Shown: positions 1-3,809 of the stretch, in pieces
How positions within the stretch are numbered: the first letter of the stretch is position 1
Layout: each line of letters starts with the position of its first letter
Assembly (NCBI GenBank): GCA_045536565.1
Contig: JAZSNU010000018.1
Location: forward strand, 1-23,199
Length of the DNA: 23,199 bases
From: Clostridia bacterium
GTDB lineage: Bacteria; Bacillota; Clostridia; TANB77; CAG-465
Direction: 5' to 3'
The notes under the pieces: generated by a model
The model's input: only the letters and a program-made list of their open reading frames with translations
Told to the model about the DNA's origin: nothing
Database searches by the model: none
Translations under genes and position numbers: made by a program

Positions 1-869
1 GGATCCATTTTTAGAAGTTCACCAAGACCTGTACAACTTGGACACGCTCCATATGGTGTATTAAACGAAAACATTCTAGGTGTAAGTTCTTCGATAGATA
101 TGTTACAATCAACACAAGCATAACTTTGACTAAATAACATATCTTCTCCGTTTACAACTGATATCATAACAAGATTATTTGCTTGTTTAAGACATAACTC
201 TACTGAGTCAGCAAGTCTTTTTCTTATATCCGGATTTACTGCAAGTCTATCTACCACTATTTCAATATCATGTTTTTTCTTTTTATCCATAGTAGGTATT
301 TCTTCTGATAAATCACACATATTACCATCTACTCTTGCTCTTACATATCCTTCTTTTATGGCAGTTTCTAAAATCTTAACATGTTCACCTTTTTTTCCTC
401 TTATTACAGGTGCCATTATATATATTCTAGTACCTTCTTTTAACTCTAATATTTGATCTACAATTTGATCTACTGTTTGCATCTTTATTCTTTTTCCGCA
501 TTTAGGACAATGTGGAACACCAATTCTTGCATATAACAGTCTAAGATAGTCATATATTTCCGTAACTGTTCCCACAGTAGAACGAGGATTTTTAGATGTG
601 GTTTTTTGGTCTATTGATATAGCCGGTGAAAGTCCTTCTATCGACTCAACATCAGGTTTTTCCATAATACCTAAAAACTGTCTTGCATAAGAAGATAAAC
701 TTTCAACATATCTTCTTTGCCCCTCTGCATATATAGTGTCAAATGCTAGTGATGATTTACCAGAACCAGAAAGCCCGGTAAATACAATTAGTTTGTTTCT
801 AGGTAGTTCTATACCAACATTCTTTAAATTATGTTCTTTTGCTCCTTTTATAATTAATTTATCGTTCAT
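1..869 (-). CDS. uvrA: Excinuclease ABC subunit A, 5' part (runs off the left edge)
   Basis: Not in the ORF track. Manual translation from ATG at 869 gives [67 protein letters not shown], with Walker A and later CxxC zinc-finger motifs. GGTGA SD upstream. Confidence 0.97.
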
Positions 870-887
870 TAAAAATCACCAACAAAC

Positions 888-917
888 ATTATATCATAAA
901 ATACATATGTTTGTAAA
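888..917 (-). promoter_or_regulatory. Putative sigmaA promoter of uvrA
   Basis: TTTACA-N18-TATAAT with extended -10 (TGnTATAAT), just upstream of the uvrA SD. Confidence 0.6.
901..912. promoter_or_regulatory. Possible degenerate LexA (SOS) box in the uvrA promoter spacer
   Basis: ATAC-ATAT-GTTT versus the Firmicute consensus GAAC-N4-GTTC; palindromic core ACATATGT. Position suits repression, but the match is weak. Confidence 0.35.
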
Positions 918-944: not shown

Positions 945-988
945 ATAACAAAAGAGATTATATAACTTGTTTTGGCCATATAATCTCT
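945..988 (-). terminator. Intrinsic terminator-like hairpin downstream of the TnpB-like gene
   Basis: Perfect 11-bp inverted repeat AGAGATTATAT (953-963) / ATATAATCTCT (978-988), extendable by G-U pairs on the minus strand and followed by TTTGTTATTT. Confidence 0.7.
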
Positions 989-1016
989 ATGTAAATTAGG
1001 AATGTGTATAATAGAA

Positions 1017-1598
1017 TTACCAAAAACAATTACATGCTTTTTTCCCTTCCATTACAAGTGAAACATAATAATTACCATCTTTATTAGATTTGATAACAAC
1101 TTTCTTAATTTCATTTTGAGCCGTAATATTTCCATTAATACTTGCTTTTACATAACCTAACTTAGGTAAAATTATTTTATCTTCTTTTATTCGTATATTA
1201 TTGTTTATATTTATGGTATTATATACTTCTTTACTATTTTTATCTTTATATCTTGGAAATCCACTAGCACCTAAGAAATACTTATCATATGCTTCAATAA
1301 CAGCTATTTGCTCTAAATATATCGTAGAATCATCAAGAGTTTCATAATCATTATTTAGTCTTTTAATTTGACTTATTTTCTTTGGGGGATTATGCTTAAA
1401 GAATCTTTCCTCATCTATTTCTACTTTATTTATCAAGCATCTTTCTATGTATTTAATATACTTATTATATACATACGCTCTTTCTTTTAGCATTAAATTA
1501 TACACTTCTTTACATACTTTAAATGTATGCTCAATTACTTCTTTTTGATGCTTATTTGGATAAATCCTAAATGTAAATACTGAGACTTTCTTGTTCAA
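1017..1598 (-). CDS. TnpB (IS200/IS605 OrfB)-like protein, N-terminal half only, no RuvC
   Basis: TnpB-type motifs FRIYPNKHQ, VYNLML, GFPRYK, LPKLGYVK and GNYYVSL. The ORF stops before the expected RuvC-I GIDLG motif. TTG start with SD AGGAGTGG. Confidence 0.85.
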   Translation of the reverse strand: MNKKVSVFTFRIYPNKHQKEVIEHTFKVCKEVYNLMLKERAYVYNKYIKYIERCLINKVEIDEERFFKHNPPKKISQIKRLNNDYETLDDSTIYLEQIAVIEAYDKYFLGASGFPRYKDKNSKEVYNTININNNIRIKEDKIILPKLGYVKASINGNITAQNEIKKVVIKSNKDGNYYVSLVMEGKKACNCFW

Positions 1599-1741
1599 AA
1601 AACCACTCCTTGAATAAACATTGTTAGATTAAATCTATATTATATTAATAAAATTTATTTAGATAAAATTAAACTTGTAAAAAGAATCGTAAATGTTTTT
1701 AGATAATCTAAAATCTACTAACTTCTAGTTAGTATACTTTT

Positions 1742-1770
1742 ATTATAATGGTAAAAAATGTAAAAGTCAA
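1742..1770 (-). promoter_or_regulatory. Near-consensus sigmaA promoter of the TnpB-like gene
   Basis: TTGACT-N17-TATAAT; predicted start near 1735, giving a leader of about 137 nt. Confidence 0.75.
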
Positions 1771-1795
1771 CAAAAATCGTATTCCAAAATTCGAC

Positions 1796-1835
1796 AAAAA
1801 CCAAGGTGTATGAGCATTTGTTACCCATACGCCTT
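1796..1835 (-). terminator. Hairpin or terminator after uvrB
   Basis: AAGGCGTATGGGTA-loop-TGCTCATACACCTT stem with one mismatch and G-U pairs, followed by GGTTTTT. Confidence 0.65.
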
Positions 1836-1859: not shown

Positions 1860-3809
1860 TTATTCTGCTTTTAAATCTTTTATTAAATCTCTAAGCATTG
1901 CTGCTTTTTCAAATTCATATTTTCTTGCATATTCAAACATTTCTGCTGTCAATCTTTCTATCATTTCCTCAGTTGTTTCTTCTGCTTTTGCATCTATTTT
2001 TATTTCTTCCTCCTCACTAAATGTTGCCTTAATACTATCTCGTATATTCTTCTTAATTGTTTTAGGTACTATATTATTTTTCTCGTTATATTCCATTTGT
2101 ATTTTTCTTCTTCTACTTGTTTCTCTTATAGCATTTTCCATAGAATTTGTAAGCTCATCAGCATACATTATAACTTTACCTTTATCGTTTCTTGCTGCTC
2201 TTCCTATTGTTTGAATTAATGACCTTTCACTTCTTAAAAATCCCTCTTTATCTGCATCAAGTATTGCAACAAGTGATACCTCTGGAATATCTAATCCCTC
2301 TCTTAAAAGGTTTATACCAACTAATACATCAAACTTTCCTTCTCTTAAATCTTTTATTATCTCAAGCCTTTCTAATGCTTTAATATCAGAATGCATATAC
2401 CTTACTCTTATGCCTTCTCCTTCTAAATAACTTGTAAGTTCTTCTGCCATTTTTTTAGTAAGGGTTGTAACAAGTACTCTTTCATCGTTTTTAGTCACTT
2501 CTTTTATATTTGCTATTAGGTCCTCTATTTGTCCATCTATTGGTCTTACTTCTATTTTAGGATCAATAAGTCCAGTTGGTCTAATAATTTGTTCTACTAC
2601 TTGTTTGCTTCTTTTTTTCTCATAATCACCAGGAGTTGCACTAACATACACAATATTTTTTGCTTTTTCTTCCCACTCTTCAAATCTAAGTGGTCTATTA
2701 TCAAATGCAGATGGCAGTCTAAATCCATGCTCTACTAATGATTCTTTTCTTGCTCTATCTCCATTATACATTGCCCCTATTTGTGGTATTGTTGCATGTG
2801 ATTCATCCACTATAACTAAGAAATCATCTCCTAGATAATCAAATAAAGTATATGGTGCTGTTCCTCTTTCTCTATTTGACATGTATATTGAATAGTTTTC
2901 TATTCCTTGACAGAAACCTGTTTCTTGTAACATTTCTATATCAAAATTTACTCTTTGTTCTAATCTATATGCCTCAACTATTTTATCCTCGCTTCTTAAT
3001 TCTTTTAATCTTTCTTCCAATTCTTCCTTTATTCTTACTATTGCTCTTTCAACATTTTCTTTTGAAGTTACATAGTGAGATTTTGGATATATTAATTCGT
3101 GTTTTACTCTTACAATGGTTTTACCTGTCAGTGGATGTATATATGAAATTTTGTCTATTTCGTCTCCAAAAAATTCTAATCTTACTGCGTGGTCGTCTAC
3201 TCCAACTTCAAATATATCAACAATATCTCCTTTTACTCTAAATCTCCCACGAATAAATTCTATATCATTTCTTTCATATTGCATTTCTACTAATTTTTCT
3301 AGTATCTCATCTCTACCTTTTTGCATACCCTCTCTTACAGAAAGTGTTAAATTACTATATGAATCTGGGTCACCCAATGAATATATAGAAGATACGCTGG
3401 CAATAATTATAACATCCTTGCGCTCAAATAAAGCAGCAGTTGCACTATGTCTTAATTTATCTATTTCGTCATTTATACTACTATCTTTTTCTATATATGT
3501 GTCAGTAGATGCGATATACGCTTCCGGTTGGTAGTAGTCGAAATATGAAATAAAGTACTCTACTGCGTTTTCAGGAAAGAATTCTTTGAATTCACTGTAT
3601 AACTGACCTGCTAGTGTTTTGTTATGTGCCATTATTATAGTAGGTTTGTTTACTCTTGCAATAACATTTGCCATTGTAAATGTCTTACCAGAACCTGTTA
3701 CACCCAAAAGTGTTTGTGCATTATATCCTTTATTTAATCCTTCTACTAATTTTTCTATTGCCTGTGGTTGATCACCAGTAGGCTTATATTCTGAATGTAA
3801 TTTGAACAT
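1860..3809 (-). CDS. uvrB: Excinuclease ABC subunit B
   Basis: [14 protein letters not shown] Walker [11 protein letters not shown] beta-hairpin, [14 protein letters not shown]-terminal UVR motif FEKAAMLRD; AAGGAG SD. Confidence 0.98.

Follow-up and report, generated by a model that had tools for sequence, protein, structure and literature searches.

TnpB is the ancestor of Cas12, and its gene is among the most abundant in prokaryotes. As described in PMC10097598, the TnpB of ISDra2 comprises a WED domain (residues 1-12 and 117-176), a REC domain (residues 13-116) and a RuvC domain that starts at residue 185. The cleft between WED and REC holds the duplex with the transposon-associated motif (TAM), most contacts with the scaffold RNA are made by RuvC, and TAM binding is coupled to guide pairing (PMC10097598). 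TldRs are immobilised derivatives of TnpB, many of them C-terminally truncated, according to the account in 10.1101/2023.11.30.569447. Here, we analyse a short gene derived from tnpB that lies between uvrB and uvrA on contig JAZSNU010000018.1 of a Clostridia bacterium (genome G000, 1.13 Mb, 100% complete, 28% guanine plus cytosine, GC). We call the whole stretch of 23,199 nt that was studied the window. Our explanation, to which we give slightly better than even chances, is that this gene is a fixed, nuclease-less tnpB remnant under purifying selection, whose product acts as a guide-independent nucleic-acid-binding protein and is probably tied to Spo0A.

The encoded protein and the missing parts of the element

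The protein has PF12323 (HTH_OrfB_IS605) as its sole Pfam domain, at residues 8-46 (E 1.6e-9, 37.5 bits for a gathering cut-off of 21). The NCBIfam profile IS200_TnpB matches residues 8-186 with its positions 4-167 out of 360 (E 2.1e-24), which gives a score of 86 bits against the cut-off of 425 bits for a whole TnpB, and the guided_TnpB profile is covered at positions 2-184 of 389. The motifs YPN..Q, GFP, LPKLG and G.YYV of the TnpB family are retained. Sequence alignment to solved structures covered residues 6-174 of ISDra2 TnpB (E 1e-12). An AlphaFold2 model computed from a 69-row alignment has a mean predicted local distance difference test (pLDDT) of 92.8, and VIA-align superposed its residues 3-193 on residues 2-183 of ISDra2 TnpB (Z 18.8, root-mean-square deviation 3.1 A, 170 residues aligned). 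The best Foldseek match was 8ex9_A (TMt 0.82), which is the ISDra2 structure where the REC lobe alone was resolved. Since the aligned span can be set against the ISDra2 domain boundaries given in PMC10097598, the short open reading frame (ORF) is the complete WED+REC recognition lobe of TnpB, and it ends in the linker before RuvC. A previous interpretation made from the letters of the DNA, hereafter the sequence-only reading, had described a 193-aa half-TnpB without RuvC between uvrB and uvrA; profiles and predicted structure now place the domain boundary in agreement with it. A library of defence systems and phages returned N-terminal parts of Cas12f and Cas12-like proteins and transposase families, and nothing else. 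The prediction of a complex of two copies (homodimer) gave scores of 0.00 and 0.01.

Among the features that define TnpB, the N-terminal WED+REC lobe is present. The RuvC domain with its D-E-D triad is missing, as the ORF stops in the WED-RuvC linker, and the zinc-finger/TNB domain is absent both from the span of the profiles and from tblastn searches with C-terminal halves. In these searches, the N-terminal halves of the four nearest full-length TnpBs matched all six orthologous loci of the genus (introduced below), and the best match of their C-terminal halves had an E value of 0.26 across the genome and the six loci. There is no second TnpB-like stretch in the whole G000 genome, where the family profile has one match, the short gene itself. 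The spacer between its stop codon and the start of uvrA measures 147 nt (870-1016), the length reported by the sequence-only reading. No 3' omega-RNA region or right end was found, the 94-147 nt that follow the gene in five of the six loci holding the uvrA promoter as sole conserved block. We found no Y1 transposase (PF01797) in the complete genome, which extends to the genome what had been stated for the window; IS607-type serine TnpA was not searched for. One weak tblastn match on contig C12 (E 0.016) was considered as a second TnpB relic and dismissed, because it is inside a 384-aa ORF. Judged by eye, this ORF resembles a gene of the MltG/YceG type.

Conservation and selection in the genus

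We compared the window genome with five other species of the genus and with two sister genera, g3 (7 genomes) and g4 (11 genomes). All five other species have a short homolog, whose frame is open over 190-216 aa. There is one copy per genome in the six species, always at the same site directly downstream of uvrB. The AAGGAG motif and the position of the start are common to all of them, and we saw no frameshift or internal stop in the six short genes. The gene uvrA starts 94-147 nt after the short gene in five of the six loci and 1,237 nt after it in G003. In the latter genome, a 303-aa gene of the ORF6N/Rha type lies between the short gene and uvrA (L003:410-1318, minus strand), and both neighbours are intact. 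The uvrB-uvrA neighbourhood of this genus is not general in the family: in one representative genome from each of five other genera (G006-G010, loci L047-L051) there is no uvrA within 1.5 kb downstream of uvrB.

Neither G000 nor the five sister genomes of the genus encode a full-length TnpB. In the sister genera, most matches have full-length frames (366-435 aa) and one match is at a contig edge; full-length TnpBs occur in 3 of 7 genomes of g3 and 4 of 11 genomes of g4, some with two or three copies. One sister genus also has a TnpB-like frame of 214 aa with an in-frame TGA (L012, G030:C21:2567-3067), which looks like a decaying copy and contrasts with the intact short genes.

All 20 aligned short proteins stop 2-21 residues beyond the position of window residue 184, i.e. 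in the same linker. The alignment consists of the window protein, 15 database proteins (185-202 aa) and four locus translations, and some of the database rows are near-copies of locus translations. We left P0006 (148 aa, 76% coverage, probably partial) out of all alignments, and P0016-P0018 out of alignment A3 and of the tree. As a background for truncation, we took 80 relatives of TnpB from metagenomes: the frame continues beyond the boundary in 69, reaches the end of the contig in 9 and is truncated in 2. These relatives are distant (34% identity or less) and served for this count alone, not for the analysis of selection. A search of genome contigs for more orthologous DNA yielded two loci, one 61% identical, which matches the values of the G004 ortholog, and one distant. 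A quick maximum-likelihood tree was computed from the 186 N-terminal columns; in it, the 20 short proteins are on one side of a branch whose neighbours are the full-length P0020, P0022, P0023, P0025 and P0029. The simplest reading is one ancestral truncation, after which the gene was retained.

We computed the ratio of nonsynonymous to synonymous substitution rates (dN/dS). It is 0.235 in the least saturated pair, G001/G002 (dS of 0.45), 0.21 in G000/G004 and 0.20 in G004/G003, and ranges from 0.2 to 0.35 within subclades, with synonymous sites at or near saturation for most pairs. The same pairs have values of 0.06-0.13 for uvrB. In DNA of 28% GC, a random codon is a stop in about 8% of cases; six open frames of ~180 codons at dS near 1 are therefore not what neutral decay would leave. 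Taken together, the synteny, the shared truncation point, the translation signals and dN/dS lend good support to a domesticated gene rather than a decaying relic. Domestication through deletion of the nuclease lobe had been proposed in the sequence-only reading together with ways to overturn it, and every such test that could be run favoured domestication: full-length copies are absent from this genome and from those of the five other species, members share the truncation linker, the gene and its slot after uvrB recur in all five relatives, frames are intact, and dN/dS is below 1 at an unsaturated dS.

Table 1. Features of the uvrB-uvrA region, in window coordinates (arrows give the direction of reading).
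Feature	Position	Strand	Remarks
Short TnpB-derived gene	1017..1598	(-)	193 aa, TTG start, stop codon included; C-terminus ...YYVSLVMEGKKACNCFW
Residue layout of the 193-aa protein			WED strand 1 ~1-13; REC ~14-115; remaining WED ~116-186; unconstrained tail 187-193
REC insertion, codons 38-72 (...KERAYVYNKYIKYIERCLINKVEIDEERFFKHNPP)	1383..1487	(-)	most conserved segment of the main subclade
Shine-Dalgarno motif AAGGAG	1606..1611	(-)	7 nt upstream of the TTG start; precedes the start codon in 6/6 orthologs
Sigma-A type promoter TTGACT-17-TATAAT	1742..1770 (1770->1742)	(-)	11/12 consensus positions
Spo0A-box-like element TGTCGAATTTTGGAATACGATT	1775..1796	(-)	just upstream of the -35 hexamer; first box TGTCGAA perfect in 6/6 orthologs
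Terminator-like hairpin, 14 pairs, then T-run	953..988 (988->953)	(-)	downstream of the short gene; not conserved in the genus
Terminator-like hairpin after uvrB	1808..1830 (1830->1808)	(-)	separates uvrB from the TnpB-derived unit
uvrA own promoter TTTACA-18-TATAAT, extended -10 TG	888..917 (917->888)	(-)	TATGATATAAT...GGTGATTTTT block conserved in orthologous loci
uvrB	1860..3809	(-)	upstream neighbour
uvrA, N-terminal part	3..869	(-)	downstream neighbour; runs off the window

Promoter, function and competing explanations

Upstream of the gene, a block is kept in six of six orthologs: TGTCGAA-N3-TG-N5-CGA(A/T)T-N4-(G)TTGAC-17-TATAAT/TATACT. Its TTGAC and -10 hexamer align across the six orthologs and also with the promoters of full-length tnpB elements of the sister genera. 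G001 and G002 share with these elements a structured part of the leader as well, with a CTGTG-loop-CACAG hairpin and an ...ATGTCA(C/T)AAA... block. One full-length element (L017) has TGTCGAA...ACGATTGTTCTTGACT at the equivalent place. Given the homology of this region to the promoter and leader of full-length elements, the short gene has kept the promoter of its source element; most of the leader has since disappeared from the main subclade, and the leader is not conserved across the genus. The near-consensus promoter and the strong Shine-Dalgarno motif announced by the sequence-only reading are both in place (Table 1). Its claim of an own terminator stands in part: the hairpin with its T-run is there, and it is clear in G000 alone, with a weak counterpart in one of the five other orthologous loci.

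The heptamer TGTCGAA is the core Spo0A box (0A-box consensus, PMC3485338). It lies 19 nt upstream of the -35 hexamer in all six orthologs, and G000 encodes Spo0A (Spo0A_C, 153.7 bits, contig C15). The locus thus shows the two marks of a Spo0A regulon member, a core TGTCGAA near the promoter and Spo0A in the genome. Because the box is conserved beside the -35 hexamer and the genome has the gene of the regulator, transcription of the short gene probably responds to Spo0A. We also considered a LexA (SOS) box. The LexA box is CGAAC-N4-GTTCG; this candidate was rejected, since the element consists of tandem TGTCGAA-type boxes and LexA is encoded elsewhere in the genome.

A fuller module, TGTCGAA-N3-TGTCGAA-CGATTTTT-(G/C)TTGAC-17-TAnAAT, was found in nine genomes of other genera of the order, before unrelated genes. 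The loci (L029-L036, L039, L040, L042-L044) include five YhgA-like (Transposase_31) genes in G053 (L029, L039, L042, L043, L044), a Spo0E-like gene and a GHKL sensor kinase, and the module also precedes a full-length tnpB (L017) and two ORFs without Pfam match, of 184 aa and 78 aa. It resembles a portable promoter of the Spo0A type. Besides the copy at 1742-1796 of the window, G000 has two other motif sites. At C14:123088-123300 (L041), a copy of the module with TTGACA-17-TATAAT is followed by ~90 nt without ORF up to a hairpin and a T-run, and looks like a small RNA unit. We rejected L041 as an RNA partner of the short protein, as it is not conserved in the five sister genomes. The third copy of the extended motif, at C14:89019-89039 (L037), is between recA (identified by eye) and a 131-aa RhuM-like ORF, of which the profile start alone matched; we take it as chance or as Spo0A-related. 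Upstream of full-length tnpB genes (L005, L014, L007, L015, L017, L008), the leader extends over ~130 nt between promoter and start. The changes in the stem of its hairpin are compensatory (CTGTG/CACAG, TCCGG/CCGGA, CTTG/CAGG around a GGGCA/GGGTA loop), and a ...ATGTCACAAAGCTAGCCCACTAGGG block is conserved. G021 has two near-identical copies of this leader with no ORF after them (L028, L038). This leader could be a structure of the transposon end or an RNA that regulates in cis. At a threshold of E 0.1, Rfam matched neither the locus under study nor the two other motif sites of G000 nor L028.

What could the short protein do? The net charge over the lobe ranges from +11 to +29 (mean +17.05), and the same region of 49 full-length TnpBs has a mean of +17.3 (standard deviation 4.5). 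This retained basic charge fits continued nucleic-acid binding. Conservation is uneven among the 18 members of the main subclade: the mean pairwise identity is 0.80 at residues 38-72 and 0.17 in the tail (185-193), and the remaining segments, as far as residue 184, have values of 0.31-0.64. The REC insertion, of ~20 aa relative to ISDra2, had been noticed in the sequence-only reading as a peculiarity of this protein. It is real, but the nearest full-length TnpBs (P0022, P0023, P0020) share it, so that it characterises the subfamily rather than domestication. The insertion is thus inherited, yet it is the most tightly constrained part of the short proteins. In the sequence alignment, the position of ISDra2 N124 is a mostly conserved Asn in the orthologs. 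Across the six loci compared, no conserved non-coding block of the size of a guide RNA flanks the gene. From the fold, the charge and the pattern of conservation, we infer a guide-independent nucleic-acid-binding protein, probably acting on DNA; the reasons are that a TnpB-like basic charge was kept and that the REC insertion is the most conserved part. A role in nucleotide excision repair is indicated by position alone.

The results point to an IS200/IS605-type tnpB element that was fixed immediately after uvrB, in what is now the uvrB-uvrA slot, before the species of this genus of low-GC Clostridia with small genomes diverged. All of the element beyond the start of the WED-RuvC linker was lost, including the RuvC and zinc-finger parts, the 3' omega-RNA region and the right end. 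The remainder is an immobile single-copy gene under purifying selection, with an element-derived promoter and a complete, well-folded WED+REC lobe. Its product would bind nucleic acid without a guide RNA, with double-stranded DNA as the most likely ligand and the WED/REC cleft, which is the TAM reader in TnpB, as the site of contact. The surface that matters most for its function would be the conserved REC insertion. Transcription is probably linked to Spo0A by way of the TGTCGAA box next to the -35 hexamer.

It is important to highlight the observations that weigh against this explanation. The family is limited to one genus and close metagenomic relatives. The short protein evolves fast relative to the C-terminus of UvrB: its identity between species is 29-61% (79% for G001/G002), compared with 80-94% for the latter. 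Pairs between the two subclades have dN/dS of 0.47-0.75, values made unreliable by saturated dS, and the support for a single clade in the quick tree is moderate (81 in the Shimodaira-Hasegawa-like approximate likelihood ratio test, SH-aLRT). The subclade of G001 and G002 has a quite different middle part of REC and lacks the NNN loop of WED; one binding specificity across the genus is therefore doubtful. In the sequence alignment, the positions of the TAM readers K76, F77 and Q80 are occupied in the orthologs by D/E/R/L, S/V/F/Q and Y/K. Since RuvC makes most RNA contacts in ISDra2 and TAM binding is coupled there to guide pairing, a lone REC lobe may bind weakly. Finally, the Spo0A-type module also precedes transposase-like genes and may simply travel with mobile DNA.

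Some of these points recur when other explanations are weighed. The lobe could be a decoy or immunity factor against IS200/IS605 elements: by competing for TAM sites with incoming full-length TnpBs of its own subfamily, or for the RNA of these TnpBs, it would keep such elements out of these small genomes. This would agree with the lack of full-length TnpB in the six genomes of the genus, each with the short gene, when part of the g3 (3/7) and g4 (4/11) genomes hold one, and with the retained fold and charge of the TAM-reading lobe. However, these genomes are few and related, four other sampled genera (g2, g5, g6 and others) have neither TnpB nor short gene, the TAM-equivalent residues vary between orthologs, and competition between a REC lobe and the full enzyme is a supposition. 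We regard the decoy as unlikely, if the least so of the alternatives. We rank next, as unlikely too, an adaptor whose REC insertion docks a protein of the host, nucleic-acid binding being secondary; candidate partners would be UvrA, UvrB or some other factor of repair or sporulation. It would account for residues 38-72 being by far the most conserved of the main subclade, and for the slot after uvrB kept in six of six loci. Yet G001 and G002 replaced this segment and retain the gene, and within-genus synteny is expected of any immobile insertion. Moreover, G003 tolerates an insertion of 1.2 kb before uvrA, and the five other genera lack uvrA within 1.5 kb of uvrB.

A functionless decaying insertion sequence remnant, open by chance or because of its recent origin, would fit a truncated transposon gene without ends, without tnpA and with fast sequence change, and database clusters of 177-185-aa proteins with PF12323 only are labelled transposase fragments. 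Such a remnant is hard to reconcile with frames open in six of six species at a synonymous divergence near or above 1, with the conserved Shine-Dalgarno motif and start, with dN/dS of 0.2-0.35 within subclades and with 20 of 20 members ending in the same linker, and the apparently decaying copy in G030 shows an in-frame TGA. We consider it improbable, below the decoy and the adaptor. Even less credit goes to a minimal RNA-guided repressor of the TldR kind, with a guide RNA encoded nearby or elsewhere. TldRs offer the precedent of immobilised and often C-terminally truncated TnpB derivatives, and WED contributes to omega-RNA binding in TnpB, as far as the account in PMC10097598 goes. But the whole nuclease (NUC) lobe, which makes most scaffold contacts in ISDra2 (PMC10097598), is gone here, and TldRs are said to keep the RNA-binding interface (10.1101/2023.11.30.569447). 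In addition, the uvrA promoter is the one block conserved in the 94-147-nt spacer, the leader lacks conservation across the genus and Rfam has no match. Last in our ranking, and very improbable, is an open frame acting only in cis, whose translation would protect or tune a transcript reading into uvrA. Read-through is plausible in most species, given that the terminator is clear in G000 alone and weak in one other, but an open frame of this sort needs no conservation of amino acids, and we observed dN/dS well below 1, a kept fold and a segment with 80% identity; besides, uvrA has its own conserved promoter.

Comparison with described TnpB derivatives

Proteins of this type may not be restricted to the genus. 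The ESM Atlas has clusters of 177-185-aa proteins with PF12323 only, with 60-85 members, labelled hypothetical or transposase fragments, and these suggest that WED+REC-only proteins may recur. Among the 80 metagenomic loci, an otherwise unrelated TnpB relative (L071, 31% identity) has a frame of 175 aa that ends 7 residues after YYVSL, with 2.5 kb of contig beyond, and may be another REC-lobe-only ORF or a pseudogene. The ~180-aa 'transposase (fragment)' ORFs have the same single domain and the same length as the short protein, and for the latter we have orthology, synteny and purifying selection. Hence, PF12323-only ORFs annotated as transposase fragments deserve a check of synteny and selection before they are dismissed. 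In the part of the literature on TnpB exaptation that was covered, we found no description of a conserved WED+REC-only derivative of TnpB.

A broader proposal can be made, which we hold as tentative and rather doubtful. Besides Cas12 effectors and the RNA-guided TldR repressors, TnpB exaptation may have taken a third route, which dispenses with both guide RNA and nuclease lobe and turns WED+REC into a small, guide-independent, sequence-reading DNA-binding protein; the Spo0A-responsive promoter of the transposon would wire it into the stationary-phase or sporulation programme. The clusters of ~180-aa 'fragment' proteins would then hint at a recurrent and overlooked class of mini-TnpB. A lone recognition lobe retained under purifying selection would indicate that the module that reads the TAM or protospacer-adjacent motif (PAM) is usable as a protein in its own right, which would widen the view of how parts of transposons become host genes. 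It would also provide a natural, well-folded scaffold of 190 aa to study or engineer TAM recognition without RNA.

The short protein is an unambiguous descendant of TnpB that lacks defining features of both TnpB and TldR. It has in common with TnpB (ISDra2; PDB 8EXA, 8EX9, 8H1J, 8BF8) a complete WED domain with its oligonucleotide/oligosaccharide-binding (OB) fold, the helical REC lobe, the motifs and a homologous promoter and leader. Unlike TnpB, it lacks RuvC, the zinc-finger/TNB domain and the C-terminal domain, and its locus lacks the omega-RNA region, the ends and tnpA and is a fixed single copy. Like the fliC- and oppF-associated TldRs, it is an immobilised TnpB derivative at a conserved site that lost the nuclease, and C-terminal truncation is also a trend in TldRs (10.1101/2023.11.30.569447). 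TldRs, however, are described as bilobed proteins with a retained RNA-binding interface and with a guide RNA next to them (10.1101/2023.11.30.569447; 10.64898/2026.09.22.753285). Here, instead of a bilobed fold with a degraded RuvC and a kept RNA-binding interface, the NUC lobe is wholly absent. As to an association with regulated genes, a feature of TldRs, the slot after uvrB recurs in six of six loci, all from one genus, as any immobile insertion would show. Other exapted or inactivated lineages of TnpB and Cas12 (sigma-factor-, DppD- and flagellin-associated TnpB; Cas12k, Cas12m) were likewise immobilised and lost the nuclease, with a suggested role in binding (PMC10691335). In contrast to the short protein, the lineages described in the part of that work considered here result from inactivation or rearrangement of the catalytic site in otherwise full proteins, and none of them is REC-lobe-only (PMC10691335). 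Known exaptations keep the whole RNA-guided machine and blunt the nuclease alone, and a lone recognition lobe differs from them in this respect.

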